IMG/VR virus record: IMGVR_UViG_3300042868_005134
Location: 303,636 to 367,635 of that record
Strand: one strand, 5' to 3'
Source of the DNA: a virus
Length of the DNA: 64,000 bases
Positions 28,555-64,000 of this stretch are shown here, piece after piece; positions within the stretch are counted from its first letter, which is position 1; every line of letters starts with the position of its first letter. The position numbers and the translations under genes are program-made. The notes beneath the pieces were generated by a model. The model made no database searches. It saw only the letters and a list, made by a program, of their open reading frames with translations, and was not told the DNA's origin.

Positions 28555-28583
28555 AAGTTTCTCCTTGTGTGTACTATATTTAA

Positions 28584-30127: not shown

Positions 30128-30174
30128 TTGGGCTCCTATATCTTTTACAATACAAGTATTATAGCATCGAACGG

Positions 30175-30906
30175 TCAGTAGGTCAAGTGATTTGTTGTTC
30201 GAAATGGTTTACCAATTTGGGCGTAGGGCAAGTTTCGAATTATTTTCTTTTTCATGGAGCGTATGACAGGATGGTTATGATTCCAATCAAACGTCTTTAA
30301 ATACTTATGATAGCTGGATTTTTTGGCACGTTTTGCCAAATTGCTGTCTAAATATCGTTTGGCTGCGTCAAAATCGTCGCCAAATTTATCGTACAATTCA
30401 CAGGCAATGTTAAAACTAAATGCGCCCATTTCGTCTTTGTGCCCGTAATACTCTTGCTCTTTGCGATCTCTCGCATAATAGGCTGTGCTTTCGTAACCTG
30501 GAATATCTTTAAATGTTCTAGTACGATATTGCCTCACGTGTATTATTTCGTGTAGCATGGTATCCGCAAACAATTTACACATTCTATCCCATCTGCTGTC
30601 CGATAGTTTGATGGTAGCATTGGTATCTTTATAACTAAACGTTATTTCAACATGCCGACGATTTTCAACATCATTATCAGAATAATATGCGCCGCCAATA
30701 TAGACCAGCCCTTTTTCGTGAGTGAGATCCCGTTTCAAGGTAACTTTAATGGGTAAGTGCCATTTGATATGCGCTGCCAATAACTTTTGTAAGTCTTTGA
30801 TGGCGATACGGCGCCCCACAACAGAGGGCTTCAATTCGTATAGCATAGTATACAAATTGGTTCTGTCCAATACTGACCAGTTAAATGGTTTCCTATTCAT
30901 TGCCAT
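30175..30906 (-). CDS. HExxH zinc-metallopeptidase-like protein (paralogue 1 of 3)
   Basis: It has 'MLHEIIHVRQY' and a downstream 'DEMGAFSFNIA' element. The same arrangement occurs in the proteins at 36991–37653 and 46887–47288. Confidence 0.55.
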   Translation of the reverse strand: MAMNRKPFNWSVLDRTNLYTMLYELKPSVVGRRIAIKDLQKLLAAHIKWHLPIKVTLKRDLTHEKGLVYIGGAYYSDNDVENRRHVEITFSYKDTNATIKLSDSRWDRMCKLFADTMLHEIIHVRQYRTRTFKDIPGYESTAYYARDRKEQEYYGHKDEMGAFSFNIACELYDKFGDDFDAAKRYLDSNLAKRAKKSSYHKYLKTFDWNHNHPVIRSMKKKIIRNLPYAQIGKPFRTTNHLTY

Positions 30907-30957
30907 TCCCCTATAACATATTTATATTATACAGGGAATACCAATTAACTGCGTAGT

Positions 30958-31548
30958 TTACGGACGTTTTGTTATGATTTCGTCAATCAATCCATAATCC
31001 AGTGCTTCTTGTGCGCTCATAAACTTGTCACGTTCCATATCAGCACTAAATTGAGCAAAGGTTTTACCTTTACTATTGTGGGCAACATAGATTCCGGTTA
31101 GCTCTTTTTTCATTTTCAAAATCTCTTCCACTTGAATCTGCATATCTGTAGCTTGTCCACGGGCGCCGCCACTGGGCTGATGAATCATGTGTCTAGCAAA
31201 CGGCAACATCTTACGCTTGCCTTTCGCACCCGCTGTGGCTAGCAAACTGCCCATACTACAGGCCTGCCCCATAACCACAGTACAAACATCGGGTTTGATA
31301 AACTGCATTGTGTCGTAGATGGCCAAGCCCGCCGTAACTACACCCCCAGGGCTGTTGATAAAGAATGTGATATCTTCATTACCTTGGCTTTCCAAAAACA
31401 GCAACTGAGCCACTAGTAAACTGGCACTATGCTCATTCACGTCCGTGTCTAGCATCACAATACGATCTTTAAGTAGTCGACTATAAATGTCGTAACTGCG
31501 TTCTCCTCGAGCTTCTTGCTCGATTACCATAGGCACTAAATTAGGCAT
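30958..31548 (-). CDS. clpP: ATP-dependent Clp protease proteolytic subunit ClpP
   Basis: The full-length alignment matches ClpP-like motifs: 'GQACSMGS' (Ser), 'HQPSGG' (His), and the 'RIVMLD...INSPGG' core. Confidence 0.85.
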
Positions 31549-31556
31549 TTGTTTCC

Positions 31557-32438
31557 TTATTTTCCGTTAGTTTGTACAGTGGGAGTTACAACACCATTGA
31601 TGACTAAAGTCTGGCCCTTGAAGTTGGCAATAGCATCTGGCAACTTACGCATGGCTTCTGCTTGGGCTTCCGCCATCAGCAACGGAATTGCCATCGGGTT
31701 GGCCTGCATCGACTCGTTACGCTTACGTGCTGTAGCCACTTTGACTTCTTCAGTCTTGAATTCGTTCTTGGCCTTGACCAATTCGTTAGCACTTGCCACA
31801 ACTGAATCAGCTGGCACAATATTACGAATCAATACTTGACTAATACTGATACTACCGTCCAATTTTTCTTCGGCAAGATTGCGAACAATTTCTTCCTTAA
31901 TAAAAGTTTCCATGTCGCTACGAGCATCTGCCATGTCCAATGCTTCGTACTTTCGTGCCGCCTTGTAGATAGCGTTACGAGCATTTTGTACAATGTAGTT
32001 GTACATTACAAATGTATCACCTTTGAACTCGGCGTGGAAGCTCTTGTTCTTAGTTGAATACAATTCAGAGACTTGCTGGGGGTTAATGTTGTAGACAACC
32101 ACTGCATCAAAGTCTTTCATGGTCGAGTTGTCTTTGGCAACAGGTGTCATGTCGTTAAGAGTTACATTCACATCCTTGATAGGAAATGTAAGTACTTCTC
32201 CAATGATGGATTGGTTGAAAGAACCAGGAAGCAGTTCACCACTTTGAACTTGTTTGTCGAATCCAACTCGAACACCGACTTCACCAGTTTCAATACGAGT
32301 ACAACCTGTTGCCAGCACAGCCGCGGCAAGAACGGAAAGAGTCAAAATACGTTTCATTTTAAATAATACCTTGTGAAAAAAGAAAAAAGCAAACAGCAAA
32401 ACCCAAAGCAAAATACAAAGGGCGAAGATAACGATCAT
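31557..32438 (-). CDS. SPFH/band-7 (stomatin/HflC-like) lipoprotein
   Basis: It has a signal peptide with a lipobox (LATGC). The body matches the SPFH domain, including a C-terminal coiled-coil / Ala-rich region. Confidence 0.7.
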
Positions 32439-38102: not shown

Positions 38103-38852
38103 ATGTCAAACGCAATAATGCCAATCGATTACGAAAACATTTTAACAAATGGGATTACCATTTGTAGTTCAGGAACAAGCGGTCGACCATCTGCTTATTT
38201 TCAAACTCCAAAAAAACTCAAATGTGCCAATGACGTAGCAATCAATGTCCAACAATTAACCAAAGATAGTAGAGTATACACTTGCTGTAGTTTGGAACAT
38301 GCAGGTGGCCTTCTTGCTCAAACATTGCCAGCATTGAGTATAGGGGCAACAGTCGATGTAGTAAAGTTCAGTGCTTATGATTTTGTACGCGATGTTAACA
38401 AATATACGCATACTCATATAACACCGTTACATGCTAAAGCAATAATGCTTACTAAAGGATTCGATACCTTAGACCTACATGGCGTATGGGTTACATGTGG
38501 CGCAGATCCGGTTACGTGGAATATCATCGAAGCATTTGTACAGCGCGGTGCGACATTCATGACTAATTGGGGAATGAGCGAAGTGGGTCCTATAGCTATT
38601 AATACTATTTTCGACAGTATGGAGAAAATTAATAAGTATAAAACACTCGCGCCCACTAATGCCACTATTATGGGTGACCAATACTGGTGTAGCATAAATG
38701 TAGTTGACAACGAATTACGGGTCAAGGGTGACATTTGTATATTCGATAGTTGGTTTGAAACTAAGGATAAAGTGTGTATGATTAACGGCGTCATGTATTA
38801 CATGGGCAGAACTAATAAGGAGGTAGACTTATGGTCTCCGAAGAAAGGTTAA
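38103..38852 (+). CDS. Hypothetical protein with an AMP-binding-like (adenylate-forming) motif
   Basis: It has 'SSGTSGRPS', which resembles the [ST]SG[ST]TGxPK core motif. At 249 aa it is too short for a full ANL-family enzyme. Confidence 0.4.
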   Translation: MSNAIMPIDYENILTNGITICSSGTSGRPSAYFQTPKKLKCANDVAINVQQLTKDSRVYTCCSLEHAGGLLAQTLPALSIGATVDVVKFSAYDFVRDVNKYTHTHITPLHAKAIMLTKGFDTLDLHGVWVTCGADPVTWNIIEAFVQRGATFMTNWGMSEVGPIAINTIFDSMEKINKYKTLAPTNATIMGDQYWCSINVVDNELRVKGDICIFDSWFETKDKVCMINGVMYYMGRTNKEVDLWSPKKG

Positions 38853-39421
38853 AAACAGTCCAATACTCTCCAGAGCATTTGGAATCATTAAAAATATTTT
38901 GCGAAAAGTGTAGGCTTGAGGGCAATTTAAATAATAGCTCATTAAAAGCTATGCGATTAGAATGGGCATTAGAAACCGGGGGACAGTTTTTCTTGACTTA
39001 TTTAGACGATGAACTTATCAGTGTCAGCGGCTGTCATCCATTGCCAGCGGCAGGCCCTGGAATATTTAGAGTCTTATTTAGAGGTATAGAACTTGCCGAG
39101 TACCGCAATGTATTCGATATTGTTAGTAAGTCCCATATGTCATCTATTCCATTTTATTACCATTTACCATTACAGCGTGAGTGGGCTAAACAACAGGGTG
39201 CTGAAACATTAGTTATTACTACTAATAAACAAAATCCTGACGGTATTGTTTCAATGGATCAAAGTCATAGGGTATTTCAATTACTAGAAAAACAAGGCAT
39301 GGTAACTTGCTTAACAGAAAGTATTATGCTTTTTGATACTGAGCAATCTATATGGGGTATAAATTTAGATTATTACGATACTGCCCGTGAAGGATTCCGA
39401 GAAAGAAATGGATTACGCTAA
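38831..39421 (+). CDS. Hypothetical protein (196 aa)
   Basis: It is an ORF in the plus-strand island and overlaps the upstream gene. Confidence 0.45.
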   Translation: MVSEERLKTVQYSPEHLESLKIFCEKCRLEGNLNNSSLKAMRLEWALETGGQFFLTYLDDELISVSGCHPLPAAGPGIFRVLFRGIELAEYRNVFDIVSKSHMSSIPFYYHLPLQREWAKQQGAETLVITTNKQNPDGIVSMDQSHRVFQLLEKQGMVTCLTESIMLFDTEQSIWGINLDYYDTAREGFRERNGLR

Positions 39422-40217
39422 CAGTGATAAATTAATTTTTATTTTAGCAAGCCCCGGTGGCAGCGGCCACCGCCTTGGCAGAATAGTGTCCTGTTTTGAC
39501 AATGTCTATTGGTATAATAATAAGACTCACAACGGAATCACTCCCTGGGATGTTTTTCATACTAACTTAGTAAAGGGAAAAACAATCAGTCCTCATCATT
39601 TTGATAGACGTACTACTAAGAACATGATCCCATTAATGGGAGAACGAATTGAAAAGTTTTGGGCTGACGAATTTGTACATATTTTATACGAAACACGTTG
39701 GCCAGACGCAATGGCAGCGGCAGGTGCAGATGAAATTCTCAACGAGGGTAAACATTTAGTCTGGGTATTACATGATATAGGCGATTATCTGCTGACTCAT
39801 TTCCCTAATGCTAAGATTATTAATCTAATAGATCAAAATGTTGAATACATAGTTGACAGGTACATTAACACAACAGCACTATTTCCAATTAACATAGAAA
39901 ACAAAAGTTTAAAACCTATCGCAGGTAAGGAAAGCAAGTTTGCATTATCGTTAGCCAAGTTGCTGGATATAAATCCAATCCCGACACATCGCGATTATTG
40001 GGCATGGTCGACACACGGAGACACGGTGTATTCTTCCGTGTATGATTCCGAGTATTACGATTATGTGGCAACAATTTTGACCACACAACACATTGAGCGT
40101 ATAAAGAAAAATCCCAAGTACATTAATGTAACTTGGGATAATCTAGATTTAGAACTTATAAAATCTTTTATAGGCGCAACATCGATAGATCTTAATTATA
40201 AAAATCTTATGAAATAA
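39387..40217 (+). CDS. P-loop-like protein, possibly a sulfotransferase or kinase fold (paralogue A)
   Basis: The N-terminus has 'LIFILASPGGSGHRLGRIVS', which is paralogous to 'LIFAAGAPGSRWTRVLS' in the protein at 40799–41719. Confidence 0.4.
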   Translation: MKDSEKEMDYANSDKLIFILASPGGSGHRLGRIVSCFDNVYWYNNKTHNGITPWDVFHTNLVKGKTISPHHFDRRTTKNMIPLMGERIEKFWADEFVHILYETRWPDAMAAAGADEILNEGKHLVWVLHDIGDYLLTHFPNAKIINLIDQNVEYIVDRYINTTALFPINIENKSLKPIAGKESKFALSLAKLLDINPIPTHRDYWAWSTHGDTVYSSVYDSEYYDYVATILTTQHIERIKKNPKYINVTWDNLDLELIKSFIGATSIDLNYKNLMK

Positions 40218-48866: not shown

Positions 48867-49967
48867 TTAAAAAGCATCGTAGTAGTGGAAGTTCTTTTCT
48901 TTCACTTTGGTAAGTGTAAGAGCATGACCATCCTTGTTCATGAAGATAAACATGCCACTTTGTGGATCAATCTTTTGGATTTCAGCTGGCGTAAAACTAG
49001 CTTCTTCCCAGTTCCAATCTGCATCTTCCTTGTCGTCGTCTTTGTCAGTCCAGGGTAGGCCTGCGTTAGACACTTTGAACGACAAGTGGATCTTGCTTTG
49101 GAGTGGATTACCTTTCCATTCGCGAGACTCCAGATGCTTTTGTTCAACAGGAATACCTTTGAAGCTCAGTTGAGTTGAATACTTGTTGCCGTCATCAAAT
49201 TCTGGTTTGGCATTCAACATCTTCAATGCTTCTTCAGGAGATTCATTGTAGCGATTCATTTCTTCAACTAATGCTTTCAGCATGTCAAAGTTGAACTGGT
49301 TAAACAACATGGCAATTGAGCAAATCTTAGCAATGTGTTCCTTGGCATTCAAGTTGTCCTCACAGTACTCGATGATAAAGTCCTGTGTCAAGCCTGTGTA
49401 GTCCAGCATGTAGTAGATACGACCTGGACGATTACGCATGTGGCTATCCACACGCCACTTGTCGTTACAGGTAATCACAAACATTTTCTTGCTGGGGAAT
49501 ACACCGTCCAACAAAGTCAGCATGGCTTCTTGCTCTTGTGCGTCGTAGACTTTTTCAAACTCGTCAAACAACACAACACATGGTTGCTCGATAGCCTGAA
49601 TCAAGGCATTGAACTTATCACCGGTCCACGCATTGTTAATAACAATGGTAGGATGGCCTTGATTGGCTGCATGAATTGACAAGGCTTTTGCCAGCAAACT
49701 TTTGCCGCTACCTTTCTCACCAGTAAGCATTACGCCAGTGCTGGCACTACGATCCATGAATGTATTAAAAATACGATTTGTATTTTTGTCTAAGTCGCCG
49801 TACCGCTTGCCTTTGATCTCAAACGAATCAATTTGTTCAAGATACAACTCACCACTCATTGGATTTTCTTTAATGGTAAAATTAGCCGCTGGTAGTGCCT
49901 CGTGTAGGTCCATGGCTTCTTTTGATGTTACACGAAACGAGATTCCTGATTTTAAAAAATATGACAT
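48867..49967 (-). CDS. AAA+ family ATPase
   Basis: It has a Walker A motif (GEKGSGKS), a Walker B motif (VVLFDEFE), and a sensor-2-like 'NRPGRI'. Confidence 0.75.
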   Translation of the reverse strand: MSYFLKSGISFRVTSKEAMDLHEALPAANFTIKENPMSGELYLEQIDSFEIKGKRYGDLDKNTNRIFNTFMDRSASTGVMLTGEKGSGKSLLAKALSIHAANQGHPTIVINNAWTGDKFNALIQAIEQPCVVLFDEFEKVYDAQEQEAMLTLLDGVFPSKKMFVITCNDKWRVDSHMRNRPGRIYYMLDYTGLTQDFIIEYCEDNLNAKEHIAKICSIAMLFNQFNFDMLKALVEEMNRYNESPEEALKMLNAKPEFDDGNKYSTQLSFKGIPVEQKHLESREWKGNPLQSKIHLSFKVSNAGLPWTDKDDDKEDADWNWEEASFTPAEIQKIDPQSGMFIFMNKDGHALTLTKVKEKNFHYYDAF

Positions 49968-50100
49968 GTTAGTCTTTTGATGTAGTGTAGTACAATTACT
50001 ATAGGTTAATTATAACATCTAAAATGTTTCTAGTTGCCTACTTTGACAGAATTAATATAAAAAAAATAGCACCCGAAGGTGCTATTTAAAAACAATGTTT

Positions 50101-58346: not shown

Positions 58347-58523
58347 ATAAATATTTTTGTGAAAACTTACGATCACTTAACACCGCAAGGATTACAGTTT
58401 CACCTTTGTTTGTACCAAGGTGTGTGCTGTGTTATGGTACACGATATATACGACAACACCTACTTCGAATTACAATACTTCACTGACGTTAACAAAGCAC
58501 TTCGCTTTGTCAACAATTTATAA

Positions 58524-58600
58524 TGGTACCCCTTGTCTGATTCGAACAGACAGCCAACTCCTTTTGAGAGAATCCGCACTACCAATTAGCGTAAAGGGGC
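58524..58600 (-). tRNA. tRNA with anticodon CAA (nominally Leu), class-I shape. It is member 2 of the family.
   Basis: It begins GCCCCTTTACGCTAATTGGTAGTGCGG. The anticodon arm is ATTCT-CTCAAAA-GGAGT. The stem changes are compensatory relative to member 1. Confidence 0.55.
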
Positions 58601-58603
58601 ATA

Positions 58604-58680
58604 TGGTACCTTCGGGCGGGTTCGAACCCCCAACCAACAGTTTCTAAAACTATCCGCACTCCCAATTAGCGTACGAAGGC
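58604..58680 (-). tRNA. tRNA with anticodon UAG (nominally Leu), class-I shape. It is member 3 of the family.
   Basis: It begins GCCTTCGTACGCTAATTGGGAGTGCGG. The anticodon arm is ATAGT-TTTAGAA-ACTGT. Confidence 0.55.
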
Positions 58681-58691
58681 ATTTAAATTTT

Positions 58692-58766
58692 TGGTAGTCG
58701 ATGCTGGGTTCGAACCAGCGACCTACACGATGTCAACGTGGTGCTCTACCACTGAGCTAATCGACT
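58692..58766 (-). tRNA. tRNA-Val (GAC)
   Basis: The D-arm is GCTC-AGTGGTA-GAGC. The anticodon loop is TTGACAT. The acceptor stem is AGTCGAT/ATCGACT. Confidence 0.65.
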
Positions 58767-58767
58767 A

Positions 58768-58842
58768 TGGTACCCTTGGACAGTTTCGAAATGTCGACCC
58801 TCGCCTTATCAAGACGATGCTCTTCCTCTGAGCTACAAGGGC
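58768..58842 (-). tRNA. tRNA-Ile (GAU)
   Basis: The anticodon arm is TCGTC-TTGATAA-GGCGA. The T-loop is unusual (TTTCGAAAC). Confidence 0.6.
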
Positions 58843-58854
58843 ATAAACTACTTA

Positions 58855-58927
58855 GGGGTGACTATCGGGGCTCGAACCCGAACTACCAGAGTCACAGTCT
58901 AGGTTGCTACCATTACAACATAGCCAC
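58855..58927 (-). tRNA. tRNA-His (GUG). It lacks an encoded G-1 and has CCT in place of the terminal CCA.
   Basis: The acceptor stem is GTGGCTA/TAGTCAC and the discriminator is C73. The D-arm is TTG-TAATGGTAG-CAA. The anticodon arm is CTAGA-CTGTGAC-TCTGG and the T-arm is TCGGG-TTCGAGC-CCCGA. Confidence 0.5.
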
Positions 58928-58939
58928 ACCTAAATAGTC

Positions 58940-59013
58940 TGGTCCTCTCGACAAGAATCGAACTTGTAATGGCCGGTTATCAGCCGACTGTTATACCATT
59001 TAACTACAAGAGG
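58940..59013 (-). tRNA. tRNA with anticodon GAU (a second Ile-type)
   Basis: It has a C1-G72 pair. The D-arm is GTTA-AATGGTA-TAAC. The anticodon arm is GTCGG-CTGATAA-CCGGC. Confidence 0.55.
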
Positions 59014-59016
59014 AAT

Positions 59017-59087
59017 AAAAACAGGATAGCATTTTTTGGCTTTTTTTACAGAAAAGATTTTTTTGATTTGCTGTTGCTATCCTAAAC
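59017..59087. repeat. Copy 1 of a tRNA-flanking hairpin repeat (AAAACAGGATAGCA ... TGCTATCCTAAA)
   Basis: A 9-bp inverted repeat (AGGATAGCA/TGCTATCCT) encloses a ~45-nt A/T-rich loop. It directly abuts a tRNA 3' end. Confidence 0.6.
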
Positions 59088-59177
59088 TGGCAGTGAGTAA
59101 GGGATTCGAACCCTTGGGCCCCTAGCGGAGCCGACAGTTTAGCAAACTATTGGGTTAAGCCACTCCCCCAACTCACT
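59088..59177 (-). tRNA. tRNA-Ser (GCU), class II (second copy)
   Basis: It is 90 nt. The acceptor stem is AGTGAGT/ACTCACT. It has a 3-bp D-stem. The anticodon arm is ATAGT-TTGCTAA-ACTGT, and the variable arm is 18 nt. Confidence 0.6.
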
Positions 59178-59339
59178 ATATAGGTTTTCCCGGCGACCAA
59201 CTATCTTTCTTAAGGACTCGCTGGCTTGTCTCGTGTGAAAGAGTTTATACAGACCTTGTACAATTCTACTGGCGTGTCATGCTCAAGAAATAGGGCACTA
59301 GAATACAAGGGACTCATCTCAACGTCTAGCTGGGAAACT

Positions 59340-59431
59340 TGGCGGAAGACGGAGGAGTCGAACCCCATCCCATTTCTGAGAACCCAGTTTTCAAGGCTGG
59401 TCGGCGCACCAACGCACCTGCATCATCTTCC
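59340..59431 (-). tRNA. tRNA-Ser (UGA), class II
   Basis: It is 92 nt. The anticodon loop is CTTGAAA inside CCAGC...ACTGG. The acceptor stem is GGAAGAT/GTCTTCC. Confidence 0.55.
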
Positions 59432-59437
59432 ATAACT

Positions 59438-59512
59438 TGGTGCTCCCTCACGGACTCGAACCGCAATAACCGGACTACAAAACCGGTATAATAGCCTTTA
59501 TATTAAAGGAGC
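59438..59512 (-). tRNA. tRNA-like gene with an apparent 9-nt anticodon loop (TTTTGTAGT). Its identity is undetermined.
   Basis: It has good acceptor (GCTCCTT/AGGGAGC, A73, CCA) and T-arms. The anticodon stem is ACCGG/CCGGT with a 9-nt loop. Confidence 0.4.
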
Positions 59513-59517
59513 AAATT

Positions 59518-59592
59518 TGGCGCCCACATATGGAATCGAACCACAATCCCCGGTTTCGTAAACCAGTATATTATCCATTATACTATGCGGGC
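59518..59592 (-). tRNA. tRNA-Arg (ACG)
   Basis: The anticodon arm is CTGGT-TTACGAA-ACCGG. The acceptor stem is GCCCGCA/TGTGGGC. Confidence 0.7.
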
Positions 59593-59597
59593 AAATT

Positions 59598-59672
59598 TGG
59601 TGGTAATAGTAGGATTTGAACCTACACCTTGCTCCGTATGAAGGAGGTGCACTACCGTTATGCTATATTACC
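59598..59672 (-). tRNA. tRNA-Met (elongator) or tRNA-Ile2 (CAU)
   Basis: The anticodon loop is TTCATAC in stem CTCC/GGAG. The acceptor stem is GGTAATA/TATTACC. Confidence 0.6.
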
Positions 59673-59767
59673 ATATAGAAACACACTAGAGTTTTACGAT
59701 AAACTACGCTCCTGAGTTTCTGCCCAAGAGCTCATAGGTCTGCCTATGTTTCTAATGTGTTTTTATA

Positions 59768-59842
59768 TGGTAGGGGCACAGGGAATCGAACCCTGATAGA
59801 CCGGTTAAAAGCCGGATATTCTAGCCGTTGAATTATACCCCC
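59768..59842 (-). tRNA. tRNA-Lys (UUU)
   Basis: The anticodon arm is CCGG-CTTTTAA-CCGG. The acceptor stem is GGGGGTA. Confidence 0.65.
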
Positions 59843-59845
59843 ATA

Positions 59846-59921
59846 TGGTCCACAGCGTCAGATTCGAACTGACACCTCATCGGTTAAGAGCCGAGTACGC
59901 TACCGTTAACGCCAGCTGTGG
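59846..59921 (-). tRNA. tRNA-Lys (CUU)
   Basis: The anticodon loop is CTCTTAA. The acceptor stem is CCACAGC/GCTGTGG. The T-arm is GTCAG-TTCGAAT-CTGAC. Confidence 0.55.
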
Positions 59922-60150
59922 ATGGATCGTAAATATTTTCTTTTACGTGCCATCCAGGACCATACGGGATCCGGGATGACACTACAGTTTACCTGTACGT
60001 TTCATGTCATTCTCCTTTGTTGATATTTCTCTTTTGTGCTTGGCGTTCTGATTTCCAGAACACTCGTTTCCAATCTTTCAAATGCTTCCACCATTGTGGA
60101 GGCGCAGTTAGGTTACCTTTTTTGACATTTGCCATAGGATTTCCTTTATA

Positions 60151-60213
60151 AAACAGGATGCTTATTTTTCAATTAAAAGTTGAATTTTTGAATTTGCTGT
60201 TCGCATCCTAAAA
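60151..60213. repeat. Copy 2 of the tRNA-flanking hairpin repeat
   Basis: It reads AAACAGGATGC ... TTAAAAGTTGAATTTTTGAATTTGCTGTTCGCATCCTAAAA. Its stem is AGGATGC/GCATCCT. Confidence 0.55.
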
Positions 60214-60289
60214 TGGTACACCCTGTTGGAATCGAACCAACTTCAACGGCTCTTCAGACCGCCGCTATGACCACATCAGCTAAAGGTGC
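60214..60289 (-). tRNA. tRNA-Phe (GAA)
   Basis: The anticodon arm is GCGGT-CTGAAGA-GCCGT. The T-arm is GTTGG-TTCGATT-CCAAC. Confidence 0.65.
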
Positions 60290-60297
60290 ATTATACT

Positions 60298-60373
60298 TGG
60301 TCTCCCTACCAGGATTCGAACCTGGACCACACGGCCCCAAACCGTGTACGCAACCTGATAACGCTTTAGAGAG
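60298..60373 (-). tRNA. tRNA-Pro (UGG) (second copy)
   Basis: It has a C1-G72 pair. The anticodon arm is CACGG-TTTGGGG-CCGTG. The T-arm is CCAGG-TTCGAAT-CCTGG. Confidence 0.65.
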
Positions 60374-60380
60374 ATAAAAT

Positions 60381-60455
60381 TGGTGGAGGCCGAGGGAATC
60401 GAACCCTTCTAGTCACGATGCTTGCAAGGCAACGCCGTAGCCCACTACTGCCCCC
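60381..60455 (-). tRNA. tRNA with anticodon UGC (Ala-type). The D-arm is atypical.
   Basis: The acceptor stem is GGGGGCA. The anticodon arm is GTTGC-CTTGCAA-GCATC. The D-arm is very short. Confidence 0.45.
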
Positions 60456-60524
60456 AATTACAAAGCATACTATTCTAACTCGTCAAAAGAGTCTGCGTTA
60501 TACGTCTTTAGTATACTTTGTAAT

Positions 60525-60602
60525 TGGCTGTCCGACTAGGGATCGAACCTAGCTCATTCTTCGTTAACAGCGAAGCGCCTACACCATGCTTGCTCTCGGA
60601 CA
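60525..60602 (-). tRNA. tRNA-Asn (GUU) (second copy)
   Basis: The anticodon arm is CTTCG-CTGTTAA-CGAAG. The acceptor stem is TGTCCGA/TCGGACA. Confidence 0.6.
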
Positions 60603-60609
60603 ATAAAAT

Positions 60610-60685
60610 TGGCGCCATGGACGGGACTCGAACCCGCCTGGTACGGATAGACAATCCGCTGCCCTACCCCGAGGACTACCATGGC
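60610..60685 (-). tRNA. tRNA-Asp (GUC) (second copy)
   Basis: It has a perfect acceptor stem (GCCATGG/CCATGGC). The anticodon arm is GCGGA-TTGTCTA-TCCGT. Confidence 0.65.
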
Positions 60686-60689
60686 ATGT

Positions 60690-60764
60690 TGGTATCGCGT
60701 ACGGGGATCGAACCCGCCTGAGTAAGTTGAAAGCCTACGGACCTCACCAGAAGTCAAACGCGAT
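60690..60764 (-). tRNA. tRNA-Glu (UUC) (second copy)
   Basis: The anticodon arm is GTAGG-CTTTCAA-CTTAC. The acceptor stem is ATCGCGT/ACGCGAT. Confidence 0.6.
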
Positions 60765-60770
60765 GTAATA

Positions 60771-60826
60771 AAACAGGATAGCATCTTTTTTCCATTAAAA
60801 GTGAAATTAGAATTTTTGCTGTTGCT
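60771..60826. repeat. Copy 3 of the tRNA-flanking hairpin repeat
   Basis: It reads AAACAGGATAGCA ... TTAAAAGTGAAATTAGAATTTTTGCTGTTGCTATCCTAAAA. Confidence 0.55.
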
Positions 60827-60914
60827 ATCCTAAAATTGGTGGAGGCTGATGGAATCGAACCACTTGACAGCCACCCTGCTTAATATGTCTACCGGGTTAC
60901 AGCCGGCAACAGGG
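60827..60914 (-). tRNA. Class-II-length tRNA-like gene (88 nt). It contains a GUA (Tyr-type) hairpin, but the fold is non-canonical.
   Basis: The acceptor stem is GGAGGTT/AGCCTCC and the T-loop is TTCGATT. There is a hairpin GCCGG-CTGTAAC-CCGGT. The D-region and variable region do not fit the standard model. Confidence 0.35.
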
Positions 60915-61894
60915 AACAACCTCCAATTTGTTAACACACTCACGACCGGTAATTACCAATCCATAAGCAAACTATGTTCACTTATAAAGAATGTGTATAT
61001 TAAAAGCCACTAGCAGGAAGAACTATGTTCCACTAGCCTCCAAGGACTAGCCCAACACCAATTGCTTTTAATATGACAGATTTTTCGCTCTAGAAGAAGA
61101 GTTTCATCCTTGCCACCGCCCGTTTGCCCATGTTTTAAGTGCGGGCCAGGACCTCGTTTCCTGTATGTTCACACTTTGCGGTCTACAACTGCCCTTGAGC
61201 AATCTCGCGCTTTCCAACAGCTTTGTGGTATAGTTTAGCTCTTGCTAACTTGTTCACAATCAATTGCTTGAACTGTTCTTTAGTTAACTCGTACTGCCTA
61301 GTCCACTCTGCTTCTTTAATCTTTTTTTCTATCATTCTTCTTGCGAAAAACAAAAAACCCCAGGAGTGTTAATCCTAGGGTCCTTGGAGTGAGCGTGTAA
61401 TTTGTGTTACACAATGTCCTCCCGGACCCTTGAAATCTCTGGTGTACGATCATATGATAGACTTCCGCCATTAATCGATAACCAAGCGCAGGCTATTACA
61501 CCTGCCTGTTTGGGCATCGTATTAAACAGTTGATGTCTATTGGACAATTGCATTTTGTTTCTCTTTAAAACCTTGTTTACTTAAACAGCACCATTGCTGT
61601 CTATGTGTTAATTATAACGCCTTTCAGCGTCCCTGTCAACAACTTTTGGAATCTTTCTTTGTTGTATTTTTACAACACTCGCAGACTACATTGTTTGCTA
61701 ACTTGTTTCTATTGTACTACTAATTAGTCTCTGTGTCAACAACTTTTTGTCTTTTTGGACAAATTGTTTTAACAGCGAATCTTTAACAGTCTTTCTATTG
61801 TATGTTTATTTAGTCTCTTTGTCAAGAGCCATATGATAATGTGGCATTTTTACAACAAAATAAAAAAGCCACATCGTTATTTAAAATGAACAGT

Positions 61895-62932
61895 CTAGAT
61901 TACATGTTTAGTTACCATAATTTCGTCAACTGTTAGACACTGTGATCGTCTACATATAGTTGGAATTGTGTTGAAAACTATTTCATCGTTGAACACATTG
62001 CCAATCTTGCCATCGTTCTTACAAATGCCAAAGTGCATGTCGCCGTTGGCATCTATAGCAAGTTTTTTCATTCCTACATTACAACTCCAGCCTTTGAACT
62101 TGTTTAAGTCTTTCATTATAATAGAGTATGCACTTGCCTGTGTAGTTTTAATTATGCCATCTTCTTCTACAGTTAAGTTTATCTTAAAATTTTTTCGATT
62201 GTTAGTGGGTGCTGCGTTTTTACGCTCATCCTCTATTGATTTAATAATAGCTTTTTCGTCTTCGGAAAAATAATCAAGAGTTAAATCAGACTTTTGTGTG
62301 TAATCTTCAAGGTGTCTACTTGTTTGGAATGGCAAATTAATGTGCTGGGTAGTAGTGTTTACTAATGGGAATATAATAAGTTTGTTAATGCCAATCGAGT
62401 GCGGTTTTAACTTTTCTTCTAACACATTCACTCTATCGAACAGCGTAGGCACCAGCATGGCCCGTACTTCAACTTTGCCGCCATTTTCTTTTAGACGCAC
62501 TGCAAGATTAACAAATTTTTCAATATCTGCGGTTTCTGGATGAAAACTAAGAAATATGTTAACAGATTTTAAAGCTTCGCTACAACGCTCGTACATCTTT
62601 GCGGGCATACTACCATTAGTAAAAATAAAAATCTTAAACTTGTGTTCTACTAATCGTTGTAAGAATAACTCAAAATTTGGTATGAGAAAAGGTTCGCCGC
62701 CAGTTAGTACTACTAACACAGTTTTATCTTCCGGCACTGCTGCCTTTATCTTGTCCGATACTGCCATTAAGTCTTCGACTTTTGGCATTGTGTTAACATC
62801 TATAGTTCTGTGATTGTAAGGCTCGCAATAAGAACAGTCGTAATTACACATATCAAGTGGCTTCCAATGTACAATGTAATCAGTTAACCAATTGTCTTTT
62901 TCAATTCTTAGGAGATTCATATTTTGTAGCAT
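61895..62932 (-). CDS. Radical SAM enzyme with a Cys-rich C-terminal (SPASM/twitch-like) extension. The likely start is the ATG at 62932; the ORF track shows a GTG at 62956.
   Basis: It has the CxxxCxxC motif 'CNYDCSYC' near the N-terminus. The C-terminus has 'WSCNVG...ICKNDG...ICRRSQC'. Confidence 0.6.
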   Translation of the reverse strand: MLQNMNLLRIEKDNWLTDYIVHWKPLDMCNYDCSYCEPYNHRTIDVNTMPKVEDLMAVSDKIKAAVPEDKTVLVVLTGGEPFLIPNFELFLQRLVEHKFKIFIFTNGSMPAKMYERCSEALKSVNIFLSFHPETADIEKFVNLAVRLKENGGKVEVRAMLVPTLFDRVNVLEEKLKPHSIGINKLIIFPLVNTTTQHINLPFQTSRHLEDYTQKSDLTLDYFSEDEKAIIKSIEDERKNAAPTNNRKNFKINLTVEEDGIIKTTQASAYSIIMKDLNKFKGWSCNVGMKKLAIDANGDMHFGICKNDGKIGNVFNDEIVFNTIPTICRRSQCLTVDEIMVTKHVI

Positions 62933-62937
62933 AAAAA

Positions 62938-62968
62938 ACAATGTGGCCGAAGCCACATTGTTTATAAA
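62938..62968 (-). terminator. Intrinsic terminator hairpin with a UUCG tetraloop
   Basis: The minus-sense sequence is AACAATGTGGC-TTCG-GCCACATTGTT followed by TTTTTTATG. It lies between the stop of the gene at 62980 and the ATG of the radical SAM gene. Confidence 0.55.
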
Positions 62969-62979
62969 TCAATTTGTGT

Positions 62980-63573
62980 TTAGATTGATTCAATCCAATC
63001 TGGTATGTGATTTAAAACGTTCTTGTTAATTCCTAACAGTTCGTTAACTTCATTGGGCAGTACAGGAACTTCCATCATTTCAGGATGCCACACTAAACCC
63101 CAGATTGGTTTAGTCTTATGTTTAAACCCTTCGATGTTGCCATCTAAGTCTACTGCAATTGCGTCATAATCAGTACCTACAGTAACAATGTTAGAACCGT
63201 GGAAGCTATTAACTAACACATTATGTCCTTCCATTGTTACTACATGTTCTGTTCCTCTATGATTTTCAATATCATCACACACTGCTCCAGATATCTCTGC
63301 TAGAAAAAATGCCCCATGACAAATACCAAGAATAGGAATATTGTGTTCTATAGCATAGTTATATAACTTTAACTCAGTGTACAAACGTGTCATACTAGAA
63401 TTCCCGCCACTTAATATTAACATATCAAATTCGTAAATCTTACCAGTATCCACATTTGGTATGGGCATAACATCATGTTTCTTCAAGAAGGTATGCCATA
63501 CATGACTTAAACAATCATGTGTGAGACCGCTGTTTCCAACAATCTCTTCACGTTGACTAATTGCAATTTTCAA
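62980..63573 (-). CDS. Class I glutamine-amidotransferase-like protein
   Basis: It has 'ILGICHGAFFL' as the nucleophile-elbow Cys and a downstream His. Its length is 197 aa. Confidence 0.55.
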   Translation of the reverse strand: MKIAISQREEIVGNSGLTHDCLSHVWHTFLKKHDVMPIPNVDTGKIYEFDMLILSGGNSSMTRLYTELKLYNYAIEHNIPILGICHGAFFLAEISGAVCDDIENHRGTEHVVTMEGHNVLVNSFHGSNIVTVGTDYDAIAVDLDGNIEGFKHKTKPIWGLVWHPEMMEVPVLPNEVNELLGINKNVLNHIPDWIESI

Positions 63574-63574
63574 C

Positions 63575-63973
63575 TTATACCTGCTCTTGTGTTAACGGGC
63601 GAGTAGTTTTGCCATAAGCAGCTTCGATCATTTCACGAGTGCCTGGTAATTCCACTGTACCTTTACAGTTAACTTCGAACAAATCTAAACGCATCTGTTT
63701 TGCCAACTCAACTACGCGAGCTTGCTTTTCAGGTGTGTCACAGATTTGTAAAAGTTTACGACGTCCCATCTTGCTATGAAATTTTTCATCACGAGCAATC
63801 TTAGCATAAGTGGTTGCAATGAAAGAATCTTCAACACAAGTTGCCATCATGGCCCAGTTACGTGCAGCACGGCCTTCGCCGATCAACTGATATAACGCCA
63901 TGGCTAATTCGTCTGTGTCGCAATTATATTCTGTAAGAATCTTTGCGCCACGAATTGCTTTGTTATTTGCCAT
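63575..63973 (-). CDS. Hypothetical protein (132 aa)
   Basis: The ORF is tightly coupled to the downstream gene by a 1-nt gap. Confidence 0.45.
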   Translation of the reverse strand: MANNKAIRGAKILTEYNCDTDELAMALYQLIGEGRAARNWAMMATCVEDSFIATTYAKIARDEKFHSKMGRRKLLQICDTPEKQARVVELAKQMRLDLFEVNCKGTVELPGTREMIEAAYGKTTRPLTQEQV

Positions 63974-64000
63974 GTCAAACTCAACTGCTGCAGCAACATC

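Follow-up and report, generated by a model that had tools for sequence, protein, structure and literature searches.

The question raised by this locus was which genes are served by a repeat-rich region of about 980 nt that adjoins three enzyme genes near one end of the analyzed stretch of DNA (64,000 nt; hereafter, the window). A sequence-only reading had placed this region, described as free of ORFs, upstream of the three genes as the leader of a radical SAM/glutamine-amidotransferase operon. The three ORFs are co-directional, as had been stated; they lie on the minus strand, which carries all ORFs and 38 tRNAs of the window, and the source of the window is a large uncultivated phage with every gene on that strand. 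In this orientation, the enzyme genes precede the 980-nt region, which lies 3' of them and 5' of a minus-strand array with about 40 tRNA genes. The region was accordingly assigned to the control of the tRNA array instead of the enzyme operon, and the head of a phage tRNA operon was placed at 61830 to 60930. Moreover, the region holds two small ORFs, 61553..61407 (48 aa) and 61335..61183 (50 aa), both conserved in more than 100 related contigs. The reading that we favor, with reasonable but not strong confidence, is a ribosome-mediated attenuator at the head of the tRNA operon that senses a shortage of any tRNA, with the enzyme genes as separate cargo.

The repeats were resolved into sigma-70 consensus promoters, three in tandem at a spacing of about 90–100 nt and facing the tRNA array. 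In the promoter scan, P1 (61797..61825, minus strand) and P2 (61711..61739, minus strand) were both TTGACA-17-TACAAT and matched 11 of 12 consensus positions, while P3 (61611..61639, minus strand) was TTGACA-17-TATAAT and matched 12 of 12. P1 was also found in a relative, L076. P3 is the family-wide promoter of the leader, GTTGACA-N17-TAnAAT being aligned across 84 unique loci, and 68 of the 103 related upstream regions had at least two promoter copies, whose distances to the leader ATG were about 88, 180, and 270 nt. The palindrome GTTGTAAAAATACAAC (61661..61676, minus strand) lies upstream of P3 and is kept there in the family alignment, with a half copy at 61846-61857 upstream of P1; it is a possible operator or UP-like element. 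The pattern TTGTA-N4-6-TACAA occurred in 29 of the 103 upstream regions. Most of the repeats reported earlier were recovered: ATTTTTACAACA is exactly repeated at 61666 and 61846, TAGTCTCT[G/T]TGTCAA is exactly repeated at 61725 and 61811, and the GCCACAT/ATGTGGC pair is present at 61868/61839. The 17-mer TTGTCAACAACTTTTTG was not an exact repeat, as its copies at 61633 and 61733 have only TGTCAACAACTTTT in common. The suggestion of a promoter or operator cluster was borne out, the repeats being three tandem TTGACA-N17-TAyAAT promoters with a conserved palindrome, while that of a riboswitch or small-RNA locus held in spirit only, as a terminator/antiterminator switch and a covarying structured RNA.

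Downstream of P3, the leader transcript would begin with a 5'-terminal hairpin (61582..61603, minus strand; predicted fold), whose stem varies with compensation in the family alignment and which gave a weak, sub-threshold match to Rfam freshwater-2 (18.8 bits). The leader ORF follows (61407..61553, minus strand; MQLSNRHQLFNTMPKQAGVIACAWLSINGGSLSYDRTPEISRVREDIV), with 48 codons and TAA in the window. A profile HMM found it in at least 141 loci on uncultivated viral contigs. Its versions have 42-51 codons and differ in length by whole triplets, and the context of the ATG is conserved. Its ribosome-binding site, AAAGAGAAAC, is weak by the E. coli standard; the only clue to the host was one Polynucleobacter MAG contig.

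The leader ORF ends within the first of two alternative RNA structures. The antiterminator (61378..61429, minus strand) consists of GGGUCC:GGACCC, GGAG:CUCC, and a variable hairpin and encloses the leader stop codon. The intrinsic terminator (61346..61385, minus strand; terminator scan) is AAGGACCCUAGG-loop-CCUGGGG followed by U6GU5, with a 5' arm that doubles as the antiterminator's 3' strand. Folding was performed on sets of 84 and 109 unique versions, including compensatory variants. The two structures were mutually exclusive, with mean energies of -22.4 kcal/mol for the antiterminator and -14.9 kcal/mol for the terminator, and the outer antiterminator stem was found in the minimum-free-energy fold of 81 of 84 versions, the stop codon being located 20-33 nt past GGGUCC and 19-33 nt ahead of AAGGACCC. 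In all 109 unique contexts, the terminator 5' arm paired upstream with the stop codon enclosed. Compensatory variants of the outer stem were GGGUUU/AAACCC, GGGUUC/GAACCC, and GGGUCU/AGACCC, and the use of two different reading frames across GGGUCC shows that the constraint on it acts on the RNA. The whole leader RNA had a z of -5.6, and the antiterminator was kept in its minimum-free-energy fold.

The leader ORF of the window encodes all 20 amino acids and uses 40 distinct codons among its 48 (P about 1e-4). All 20 amino acids were encoded by 89 of 114 unique leaders (78%) and at least 19 by 106 of 114; the other 22% were without one or two amino acids, most often Cys. When long ORFs of these contigs were cut into pieces matched in length for comparison, all 20 were found in 69 of 85 unique leader ORFs versus 2.65% of the pieces, and for the 35-43 codons before the hairpin, in 66 of 84 versus 0.8% by chance. 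In a more divergent, separately ascertained sample, all 20 were present in 21 of 31 leaders and at least 19 in 28 of 31. As the family members are related, these sequence counts are not independent events, and kinship was addressed only by the following two analyses: the all-20 property was kept in 23 of 38 clusters at 70% identity, and independent resampling of alignment columns gave all 20 in 18.7% versus the 81.9% observed. The rare residues shift position yet are retained, with Cys (mean 0.94 copies) spread across 18 alignment columns, Tyr across 14, and His across 13. At the anticodon level, of the 30 species present in the array of the window, 28 are engaged by the leader, whereas the null averaged 20.4 ± 2.0 and did not exceed 27 in 20,000 samples, and at 40 other loci a mean of 90% of the species of the array was engaged versus 70% for the null (mean z 2.4), although this coverage is partly a by-product of amino-acid diversity.

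We infer an attenuator reading of this leader, including its transcript ends, leader translation, and regulated read-through. The attenuator would be of the trp/his type, with two outcomes set by the ribosome on the leader. Smooth translation to the stop codon would melt the 5' strand of the hairpin, the terminator would form, and the transcript would end before the tRNAs. When the ribosome stalls at any of the first 40 or so codons, the antiterminator hairpin would stay intact, and RNA polymerase would pass the terminator and go on to transcribe ORF2, the structured RNA, and the tRNA array. Since the codons sample 20 amino acids and nearly all anticodon species of the array, a shortage of any aminoacyl-tRNA would lead to more phage tRNA, and the switch probably turns the tRNA genes on once any tRNA runs short. 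Such shortages could arise when codon usage is mismatched, when the host is shut off, or when host defences cleave tRNAs. However, the ribosome would stall under amino-acid starvation as well, a condition that more tRNA would not relieve.

Past the terminator, ORF2 (61183..61335, minus strand; 50 aa, MIEKKIKEAEW...) is an optional, conserved gene for a small helical protein. Of 102 loci, 71 had it directly past the terminator, preceded by a purine-rich ribosome-binding site, and it had no match in protein family searches. Although ORF2 is similar in size to the leader, none of its 56 versions encoded all 20 amino acids, and it showed an ordinary coding signature. Between the leader or ORF2 and the first tRNA lies a structured RNA, block 2 (60945..61185, minus strand), whose motif was present in 75 of 100 loci. 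Compensatory changes were found at 18 of its 24 base pairs with clean controls (alignment A1), and it had no Rfam match. The first array element is a tRNA-Tyr(GUA)-like gene (60840..60925, minus strand) with an aberrant D arm; it gave a sub-threshold Rfam score of 26.3 bits and was not called by ARAGORN, even with relaxed settings, while a canonical tRNA-Tyr occupies the syntenic position in the related locus L004. The array itself (52110..60765, minus strand) comprises 38 ARAGORN tRNAs, along with weak or extra ones and a few protein genes between them, and presumably represents the payload of the promoters and the attenuator.

The same order, namely, 5' hairpin, 42-51-codon ORF, three-tier hairpin/terminator, often ORF2, structured RNA, and tRNAs, describes the module as a whole. 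A terminator-arm 16-mer was common to at least 117 viral contigs and the block-2 motif to at least 118. In 100 of 102 related loci, a same-strand tRNA was located 202-1231 nt (median 446) past the terminator, and the arrays behind the module held up to 23 tRNAs within 3 kb. About one-fifth of loci have an extra consensus promoter directly before the first tRNA; thus, the array is not always under the attenuator alone. In the window, the promoter scan found no such promoter. Rfam searches returned no family for the module, no GenBank phage match was obtained, and the literature search found no paper that describes it.

In transcription order, the first enzyme gene is a di-metal oxidase-like gene of the helical heme-oxygenase-like/ferritin-like type (63575..64000, minus strand; 3' part, about 141 codons, of a gene for about 230-237 aa). 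It had been read as an ORF of 132 aa; instead, it is a fragment cut by the window edge, as there is no stop upstream of the ATG at 63973 and the frame continues past the window end. With homologues of 225-237 aa, the window holds the C-terminal 141 or so residues, and about 95 N-terminal codons lie beyond. Its motifs are DEAxHF, EGRA, and ARDExFH (alignment A2), and its model (pLDDT 93.5) was nearest to the solved folds of UndA, TenA-like proteins, CADD, PaaA, and ADO, with TM of 0.6-0.67 and weak E-values. The second gene (62980..63573, minus strand) encodes a stand-alone class-I GATase/peptidase C26-like protein of 197 aa with a TTG start and 278 homologues. Pfam Peptidase_C26 and GATase were matched above cut-offs, the best NCBIfam model was gamma-glutamyl-CDP-amidate hydrolase (86.9 bits, far under the equivalog cut-off of 250), and the best PDB sequence match was GMP synthase subunit A. 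The third gene (61895..62932, minus strand) encodes a radical SAM enzyme of 345 aa from the ATG at 62932, although the alignment consensus suggests that the true start may be the ATG at 62920. It has a Pfam Radical_SAM match, a conserved CNYDCSYC motif, and a C-terminal twitch/SPASM-like cluster of conserved C284, C304, C327, and C332.

The tight coupling by a 1-nt gap that had been ascribed to all three genes applies to the oxidase-like ORF (stop 63575) and the GATase-like ORF (start 63573). Similarly, the strong intrinsic terminator AAACAATGTGGC-UUCG-GCCACAUUGUUU with a U run (62936..62963, minus strand; 12 bp, terminator scan) exists, but in transcription order it separates the second and third genes, not the first and second. 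The cargo consists of translationally coupled oxidase-like and GATase-like genes, a terminator, and then the radical SAM gene. The oxidase-like/GATase-like pair was the only one of the three enzymes to recur together; the radical SAM family was linked neither to this pair nor to the module, and its homologues occur in varied phage contexts. The upstream neighbours of the module differ by locus and include ClpP, rubrerythrin, AhpD-like, and other genes. The three enzyme genes are variable cargo unrelated to the tRNA control module. Of the two outcomes that the earlier note had joined as grounds for rejection, namely, repeats that are not conserved in related genomes and genes that are unrelated hitch-hikers, only the second was seen: the repeats are conserved, whereas the enzyme genes behave as variable hitch-hikers with respect to the module.

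Several other explanations of the small ORF were weighed. The 48-aa ORF may be a functional micro-protein, with the hairpin and U run as its terminator or 3' stabiliser and the tRNAs transcribed independently, in which case the all-20 composition has no regulatory meaning. The conservation at the amino-acid level of W, KQAG, and SYDRTPE (with fixed ACA CCA GAG codons) favors this; it exceeds the need of a pure composition sensor, and the attenuator model has no explanation for the excess, which could stem from a role of the peptide itself, from an effect of the nascent chain, or from a constraint on the RNA. Small proteins of the family are also called in metagenomes, and the extra promoter before the first tRNA in one-fifth of loci points the same way. 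Yet the rare residues change columns and stay, and the all-20 property is about four times the column-resampled expectation. The mismatch rates by codon position were 0.161/0.165/0.207 in the leader, a weak third-position excess that points to regulatory rather than protein character, unlike the 0.150/0.116/0.249 of ORF2. Furthermore, the hairpin in competition with the terminator encloses the stop codon in every case, the module is always found at the head of a tRNA array, and it would be uncommon for a 48-aa protein on its own to be driven by two to four strong promoters in tandem. A micro-protein was judged unlikely. That the region yields noncoding RNAs only, an sRNA ending at the terminator and block 2, with the small ORF untranslated, was judged distinctly improbable; the strong structure of the leader RNA, the RNA-level constraint on GGGUCC, the clear RNA nature of block 2, and the weak Shine-Dalgarno sequence agree with it, but the ORF is open in 141 loci with triplet length changes and a conserved ATG context, and an amino-acid composition so far from chance would be meaningless for an untranslated RNA.

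Two further explanations tie the region to the enzymes. Given the similarity of the radical SAM model to peptide maturases (SuiB, SkfB, EpeE, and PqqE) and the position of the ORF directly downstream of the radical SAM gene in the window, the ORF could be a RiPP precursor for this neighbour, the whole forming one biosynthetic locus. Among 233 related loci, however, a member of the radical SAM family (>40% identity) accompanied the module only in L004, where the gene lies 5.4 kb downstream inside the tRNA array; the upstream neighbours are heterogeneous, and separate promoters drive the ORF, which goes together with a terminator and tRNAs, so that a RiPP precursor appears very improbable. We give almost no credence to the original proposal, in which the repeat field is a riboswitch, operator, or iteron leader of a radical SAM/GATase operon making a queuosine-like or modified-nucleotide product. 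The repeats and palindromes are present, the PTPS/QueD-family gene at 22921-23475 was confirmed as a Pfam match (E 8e-15), and the second-best PHROG of the radical SAM protein is QueE-like. Nevertheless, the strand assignment already contradicts this proposal, as it puts the region at the 3' side of the genes, and the promoters point away from the enzymes. Against an iteron field or origin, no switch in GC skew was seen, and the -35/-10 geometry is exact in every repeat unit. QueE models scored 20-38 bits versus cut-offs of 206-300, no QueC, QueE, or DpdA homologue was found among about 30 window ORFs scanned, and the three genes are not a conserved trio.

Like SPASM/twitch enzymes, the radical SAM protein combines Cx3Cx2C and a partial TIM barrel with a Cys-rich C-terminal domain, and its model (pLDDT 89) was nearest to SuiB, BlsE, SkfB, EpeE, DesII, and PqqE (Foldseek E-values of 5e-10 to 5e-5; TM of 0.44 to 0.55); unlike them, it shows 11-16% identity and only four conserved C-terminal Cys, and no precursor peptide or substrate was identified. 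The GATase-like protein shares the Peptidase_C26/GATase fold family with Cj1417/PuuD-type hydrolases. It differs from Cj1417 in its low model score and in its constant partner, the di-metal oxidase-like protein, and no Cj1415, Cj1416, or Cj1418 partners were seen.

Among RNA elements, phage tRNA regions contain ornate or stable RNAs such as GOLLD and ROOL (Rfam) and the stable RNAs of the T4 tRNA region. Block 2 is likewise a conserved structured RNA adjoining phage tRNA genes, with which it probably shares a transcript, whereas it is only about 200-240 nt, has no counterpart in Rfam, and holds a fixed place between the attenuator and the first tRNA; GOLLD occurs elsewhere in the tRNA arrays of the related contigs L059 and L041. 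Bacterial rRNA/tRNA operons have tandem strong promoters, such as E. coli rrn P1/P2. The 2-4 consensus promoters in tandem, about 90-100 nt apart before stable-RNA genes, are similar, but in the phage a leader ORF, presumably translated, and a terminator come after them. T-box riboswitches precede Gram-positive aminoacyl-tRNA synthetase and amino-acid genes as tRNA-sensing leaders and, like the proposed attenuator, sense tRNA status and switch between terminator and antiterminator; however, they are untranslated and bind one specific uncharged tRNA directly, whereas the proposed sensor of the phage module is the ribosome, which would sample all tRNAs. No T-box match was obtained at E <= 10.

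In design, the module parallels the ribosome-mediated attenuators of enterobacterial amino-acid operons (trpL, hisL, pheL, leuL, thrL, and ilvL). In common with these, the module has a short leader ORF behind a promoter, an intrinsic terminator ahead of the payload, an upstream hairpin that shares bases with the terminator, and a leader ORF end placed so that the ribosome position would decide the structure. No 1:2-type pause hairpin was identified in the phage leader. Unlike the trpL type, the module occurs in phages, its leader is longer (42-51 codons) with the stop codon inside the antiterminator, and in place of a single-codon run there is about one copy per amino acid and some 40 different codons. 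Moreover, the payload of the phage module is a tRNA gene array, whereas that of trpL-type attenuators is biosynthetic enzymes.

All 38 tRNAs called by ARAGORN (52110–60685) and the sizeable ORFs of the window lie on the minus strand, save those at 38103–40217 (plus strand). Read in the direction of the minus strand, an oxidase-like ORF enters from outside the window (..64000–63575) and is followed, after a 1-nt gap, by a class-I glutamine amidotransferase (GATase)-like ORF of 197 aa (63573–62980), a canonical intrinsic terminator between the GATase-like and radical SAM genes (62963–62936), the radical SAM ORF (62932–61895), and a stretch of approximately 980 nt (61894–60915), after which the tRNA array begins. 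Thus, by the order of transcription, this stretch comes after the enzyme genes and stands at the head of the tRNA array. The sequence-only reading had taken it for an ORF-free leader upstream of an enzyme operon; it lies 3' of the enzyme genes, and a small leader ORF (61553..61407) and a second one, ORF2 (61335–61183), were found in it, both on the minus strand. A supposedly ORF-free leader is therefore open to misreading while its strand is unresolved, which is a general lesson for annotation.

A promoter scan of the minus strand gave three tandem promoters in this stretch, namely, P1 (61825..61797, TTGACA-17-TACAAT), P2 (61739..61711, TTGACA-17-TACAAT), and P3 (61639..61611, TTGACA-17-TATAAT). 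The direct repeats noticed earlier are present in the sequence, one of them inexactly, and in minus-strand reading they make up the −35 hexamers, spacers, and upstream flanks of these promoters. The sequence ATTTTTACAACA is half of the palindrome GTTGTAAAAATACAAC, which is located upstream of P3. An iteron-type replication origin had been proposed for the repeats, but cumulative GC skew was monotonic over 50–64 kb, with no skew switch, and the repeats are −35/−10 pairs with 17-nt spacers. The possibility that the repeats would be missing from relatives was not borne out either: of 103 unique upstream regions, 68 have at least two consensus promoters in the 450 nt before the leader ATG, these promoters stand at about 88, 180, and 270 nt before that ATG, as in the window, and P1 and P2 recur nearly unchanged in one related locus (L076). 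Behind the stop codon of the radical SAM gene, at 61839–61875 (minus strand), ATGTGGC and U6 were observed, with the matching GCCACAT 22 nt downstream; the element resembles the 3' half of the 62936–62963 terminator with the 5' arm missing, and may be either the remnant of a terminator or an alternative one ahead of P1.

When the region was compared by blastn with the loci fetched for enzyme homologues, a match (75% identity, E 1e-12) was found at the start of the related locus L004, just upstream of its tRNA-Tyr. A 16-mer from this match, AAGGACCCTAGGATTA, occurs without mismatch at least 117 times in IMG/VR contigs, and the downstream-RNA motif retrieves at least 118 loci, 98 of those listed being without the 16-mer. 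Alignment of the loci gave one order of elements: GTTGACA-N17-TAnAAT, a 5' hairpin, AAAGAGAAAC-AAA-ATG with the small ORF, GGGUCC-GGAG, a variable hairpin, CUYC-AA-GGACCC, a terminator (ACCCUAGG, loop, CCUGGGGU, and U6GU5), a second small ORF with a good ribosome-binding site (71/102 loci), a structured RNA termed block 2 (75/100 loci), and the tRNAs. A same-strand tRNA was present within 202–1231 nt (median 446) in 100 of 102 loci, Tyr, Cys, and Asp being its commonest identities. These sequences share kinship, and counts of them are not independent. The genes upstream of the module vary by locus and include ClpP, rubrerythrin, and AhpD-like genes, among others. Family-wide, the first tRNA after the module is most often Tyr, followed by Asp, Asn, or Cys, an order that may reflect demand. 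Tyr, Asp, Asn, and His tRNAs form the queuosine family, and colicin-E5-type and some retron-linked anticodon nucleases target them.

The window carries collagen-like tail-fibre proteins, ClpP, UvdE, DNA ligase, and about 40 tRNAs, and therefore comes from a large uncultivated phage. A eukaryotic giant virus had been suspected from the Rpb6 and eIF-1a Pfam matches in L004. This was rejected because L004 has a 23-tRNA array and phage-like genes in common with the window, and because the window has bacterial promoters, bacterial terminators, and tail-fibre genes. Among 50,697 GenBank phage records, no close relative was found by megablast and sensitive blastn of the region or by tblastn of the leader peptide. 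Outside IMG/VR, the terminator pattern matched only one contig among 185,579 species-representative genomes, the 6.2-kb L234 (JBBAKF010000113.1) of a Polynucleobacter sp. MAG; it is probably phage DNA binned with that MAG, and it gives a weak hint of a freshwater betaproteobacterial host. Further observations in the window were two very large minus-strand ORFs, at 13000–20766 (2588 aa) and 8747–12985 (1412 aa, with collagen-like tail-fibre repeats by PHROGs), and ClpP, a Bax1-inhibitor-like protein, and an SPFH protein at 27880–32438.

The centre of the module is a pair of mutually exclusive predicted structures. On folding, the segment from GGGUCC to GGACCC formed a three-tier stem in every family member, the innermost hairpin of which varies in sequence, is constant in shape, and encloses the stop codon of the leader ORF (TAA in 80/84). 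This antiterminator shares its ACCC bases with the terminator, which in the window is a stem followed by U6GU5 (61385..61346, minus strand, by terminator scan); the mean energies were −22.4 kcal/mol for the antiterminator versus −14.9 for the terminator. In 109 of 109 unique contexts, the 5' arm of the terminator pairs with a segment that precedes the stop codon, and divergent members have altered both partners of the stem (GGGUUU/AAACCC, GGGUUC/GAACCC, GGGUCU/AGACCC, and GGGUUUAAGUUAA/UUAACUUAAACCC). Moreover, GGGUCC is constrained as RNA, since it is translated in two different frames (RV.. or GS..). Across 84 unique versions, the stop codon stands 20–33 nt after the start of GGGUCC and 19–33 nt before AAGGACCC. 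Published footprints place the ribosome over about −15 to +13 nt relative to the A site. From this spacing and such a footprint, the leader ORF ends where a terminating ribosome would block the antiterminator and not the terminator. The whole 260-nt leader RNA folded with z = −5.6 and kept the antiterminator, so an untranslated or stalled transcript should read through. In the minimum-free-energy fold of the terminated leader RNA (61345–61604, minus strand), the U tract of the terminator was observed to pair with the A-rich ribosome-binding region AGAGAAACAAAAUG, which in this model would hide the start codon on the completed transcript. A trp-like 1:2 pause hairpin inside the leader ORF was considered as well and set aside, the hairpin at 61505..61488 not being conserved in the family.

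The leader ORF was found by profile HMM in at least 141 loci, with 114 unique peptides of 41–51 aa (one of 37) that differ in length by triplets. It starts at a median of 56 nt after the −10 element in the conserved AAAGAGAAAC-AAA-ATG context, and its peptide has no family in Pfam, PHROGs, or NCBIfam. Its composition is unusual: all 20 amino acids occur in 69 of 85 unique leader ORFs versus 2.65% of 20,000 pieces of the same length from long ORFs of the same contigs, and the 35–43 codons preceding GGGUCC hold all 20 in 66/84 versus 0.8%. In total, 89 of 114 leaders contain all 20 and 106 at least 19. The property recurs in 23 of 38 clusters at 70% identity and in 21 of 31 separately ascertained, more divergent leaders, 41-residue peptides among them. 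Rare residues shift position yet stay, as Cys has a mean of 0.94 copies spread over 18 alignment columns, with 13 columns for His and 14 for Tyr; where Y is lost from SYDRTP, it is gained in PSYW. Independent sampling of columns yielded all 20 in 18.7% versus the observed 81.9%. Mismatch rates by codon position were 0.161/0.165/0.207 in the sensing part, and the last eight codons showed no periodicity.

The codons follow the same tendency. The window leader uses 40 different codons among 48, with four for Arg, four for Leu, three for Gly, and two for Ile. Its own array has 30 anticodon species, of which the leader, under simple wobble rules, engages 28 (null 20.4 ± 2.0, maximum 27 in 20,000 samples). 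In 40 other loci, chosen for having at least 18 anticodon species in the fetched DNA and holding parts of their tRNA arrays as fetched, the leader engages 90% of the array anticodon species versus 70% for the null (mean z 2.4).

We infer from these features, with somewhat more confidence than doubt, that the module is a ribosome-mediated attenuator of the tRNA array that follows the logic of trp and his. Smooth translation of the leader would bring the terminating ribosome to a position where it holds the 5' strands of the two inner stems, abuts the outer stem, and leaves GGACCC free for the terminator, and transcription would end. A stall in the sensing part would allow the antiterminator to form, and transcription would read through. 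The signal could come from each of the 20 amino acids and from nearly every tRNA species in the array, and the payload would be the tRNA genes.

Several observations weigh against this or are not explained by it. The Shine-Dalgarno sequence of the leader is weak, and one or two amino acids are missing from 22% of leaders. Attenuation does not account for the conservation of W, KQAG, and SYDRTPE, in the last of which synonymous sites are fixed as well. Furthermore, about a fifth of the loci have an extra consensus promoter just before the first tRNA, though the window has none. In examples such as L054, L063, L067, L081, and L205, this late promoter lies about 38 nt before the first tRNA (TTGACA-N17-TA(T/C)AAT, spacer ending GGAGAGTGT), shares sequence with the last hairpin of block 2, and would place the transcript start practically at the 5' end of the tRNA; the promoter count between terminator and first tRNA is partly confounded by block 2's own TTGACAGGAAACGAGG sequence. 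A different role for the leader ORF, as the RiPP precursor of the radical SAM enzyme, is contradicted by co-occurrence in the related loci.

Between the terminator and the tRNAs, two further conserved elements were characterized. ORF2 belongs to a helical family of 45–58 aa conserved in related loci, with the motif (F/W/Y)T..HTL(T/S).EQ..KLI..K.ERA..Y and no family in Pfam, PHROGs, or NCBIfam. Its mismatch rates by codon position (0.150/0.116/0.249) are a normal coding signature, and none of 56 ORF2 sequences (50–58 aa) contains all 20 amino acids. Block 2 (~61185–60945, minus strand) is a real structured RNA. RNAalifold gave 24 pairs, 18 of them with compensatory changes, and 99.4% of the alignment cells were paired; the covariation score was 0.518 versus 0.192 ± 0.012 for shuffles (0/500 reached it) and at most 0.095 for slid controls. 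Two more helices tried by eye were left out of this structure owing to an inconsistent MAFFT register. A closing stem of 15 bp surrounds a variable insert, which in some loci has a T-arm-like GGGGUUCGAAUCCCC; the AACGAGG hairpin loop of the RNA and its AAACGGGCGG are both invariant, and a further loop reads CACUUAAAACA. No Rfam family matched block 2, and its identification as tmRNA, RNase P RNA, Y RNA, or T-box was unsupported by Rfam and ARAGORN.

The tRNA array itself held further features, all on the minus strand. Two tRNA-like genes were missed by default ARAGORN: a tRNA-Tyr(GUA)-like gene with an encoded CCA, a long variable arm, and almost no D arm (60840–60925), and a weak tRNA-Glu(UUC) whose D arm has a 6-bp stem and a 4-nt loop and for which the tRNA-Sec model gave the best score (37.1 bits; 60693–60765). 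Both could be non-canonical tRNAs or decaying copies. A repeat between tRNA blocks (60150–60210 and 60770–60838) reads AGGAT(G/A)C...G(C/T)ATCCT, a 7–9-bp stem around an A/T-rich loop of about 40 nt, then GUUUUAU; its 60150–60210 copy overlaps a promoter-like TTGAAA-16-TATAAA and precedes a 42-aa ORF (60135..60007) with a ribosome-binding site. Inside the array, a low-G+C island (55626–57743, 0.34–0.36) holds two enzyme genes, one for another radical SAM protein of 472 aa and one for a nitroreductase-family protein of 221 aa, and their homologues lie within or near the tRNA arrays of L004, L178, L081, and L070. A DUF2828/DUF7788 protein (471 aa) and an AAA ATPase adjoin the array (48867–51516); a Ro60/Y-RNA-like system was considered there, and Rfam found no Y RNA.

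As for the enzyme genes, their region has a G+C content of 0.35–0.39, lower than that of the tRNA region (0.44–0.47). The 132-aa ORF covers the C-terminal portion of a protein of about 230–237 aa, a putative member of the ferritin-like/heme-oxygenase-like di-metal oxidases, which are helical bundles with E...ExxH ligand motifs twice; it has DEAxHF and DExFH motifs and conserved E residues. Its all-helical model (pLDDT 93.5) resembles UndA, CADD, TenA-like, PaaA, and ADO proteins, at TM 0.6–0.67 with weak E-values (at least 2.7e-3) for UndA, CADD, PaaA, and ADO; its Pfam matches were below the cut-offs, and the fragment had no PHROGs or NCBIfam family. By its profile scores, the 197-aa protein is a member of the Peptidase_C26/GATase family (PF07722, 58.1 bits, cut-off 20.5; PF00117, 53.2 bits, cut-off 22.8), and its closest specific model, gamma-glutamyl-CDP-amidate hydrolase (Cj1417, NF045546), gave 86.9 bits where 250 are needed. 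The radical SAM protein matched PF04055 (50.4 bits versus a cut-off of 29.5) and not the Pfam SPASM model. The earlier label "SPASM-like" nevertheless holds, because the protein has CNYDCSYC (C29/C33/C36 invariant) and four conserved C-terminal Cys (C284, C304, C327, and C332), and because the nearest folds to its model (pLDDT 89) are SPASM/twitch enzymes, namely, SuiB, BlsE, SkfB, EpeE, DesII, and PqqE. A queuosine-like product had also been envisaged. No QueE, QueC, or DpdA was found among the scanned window ORFs, and the QueE NCBIfam scores of the radical SAM protein (38.2, 23.5, 21.4, and 20.4 bits) were far below the cut-offs (260, 206, 240, and 300).

The distribution of these genes was also determined. 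The oxidase-like and GATase-like genes recur as a pair. In three related loci (L014, L015, and L017) they are adjacent, in the 315-kb contig L011 they are neighbours in divergent orientation, and in L067, L105, L108, and L124 they are located upstream of the module. By tblastn against GenBank phages, only Campylobacter phage radical SAM genes matched the radical SAM protein (29–30% identical), and a back-translated search of viral contigs found nothing. Its family sits inside the tRNA array of L004 and, in the marine contigs L001–L008, beside halogenase/AMP-ligase/multi-radical-SAM clusters. The only sizeable plus-strand genes of the window (38103–40217), a truncated AMP-binding-like protein and two unknowns, have homologues (up to 48% identity) that neighbour the radical SAM family in L001–L008, where Trp-halogenase, TctA, and several SPASM radical SAM genes also adjoin them.

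The purpose of phage tRNA genes and the circumstances of their use have been under debate for about 50 years. Among other roles, the genes have been proposed to compensate for codon usage, to replace host tRNAs that are degraded, and to evade defences that cleave tRNAs (for instance, PMC10264068 and PMC11555353). We give even chances to a broader reading, in which large aquatic phages keep their tRNA arrays under a "pan-tRNA" attenuator, so that a ribosome stalled by shortage or cleavage of any single tRNA would turn on transcription of the entire array, along with that of a small protein and a structured RNA; the leader peptide would then have been selected to hold every amino acid and nearly every codon class of the phage's own tRNAs. 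If this is true, the attenuator would be a general sensor of translation capacity and possibly a counter-measure to host anticodon nucleases or host tRNA decay. A cis element that ties transcription of the array to stalling at any codon would also be direct genomic evidence of on-demand arrays, a question testable with a reporter of about 300 nt. In addition, the analysis provides two further conserved elements at the heads of phage tRNA arrays, a protein of ~50 aa and a structured RNA of ~200 nt, as well as a recipe for finding such heads in metagenomes.

The module was finally compared with known regulators. At gathering and E-value thresholds, the Rfam matches in the window and 21 related loci were tRNA, GOLLD, and tmRNA, all away from the module, and a freshwater-2 match (18.8 bits) was below threshold. 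GOLLD RNAs lie inside the tRNA arrays of L059 (7302–7765, 207 bits) and L041 (1132–1594, 196 bits), and a tmRNA (permuted-type model, 126 bits) lies upstream of the module in L063 (9786–10228); in the window, Rfam gave neither GOLLD nor tmRNA and no covariance match to the GOLLD/ROOL ornate RNAs. A T-box riboswitch had no Rfam match at E ≤ 10 in window 60600–62000, nor at E ≤ 0.5 in 10 related loci. In the full-text literature, whose coverage was incomplete so that an earlier description is possible, no all-amino-acid leader or attenuator before phage tRNA arrays was found, and to our knowledge, no earlier leader-peptide attenuator has all amino acids rather than one as its signal. Like leader-peptide attenuators, the module has a short ORF with a start codon and a (weak) ribosome-binding site between promoter and genes, an intrinsic terminator before the regulated genes, which are tRNAs in 100 of 102 loci, and an alternative hairpin exclusive with that terminator. 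Unlike them, it lacks a run of codons for the amino acid of the operon, each of the 20 occurring about once, and this absence sets it apart as a variant of leader-peptide attenuation. It would differ from trp and his attenuation in that its payload is tRNA genes and its signal is any amino acid.
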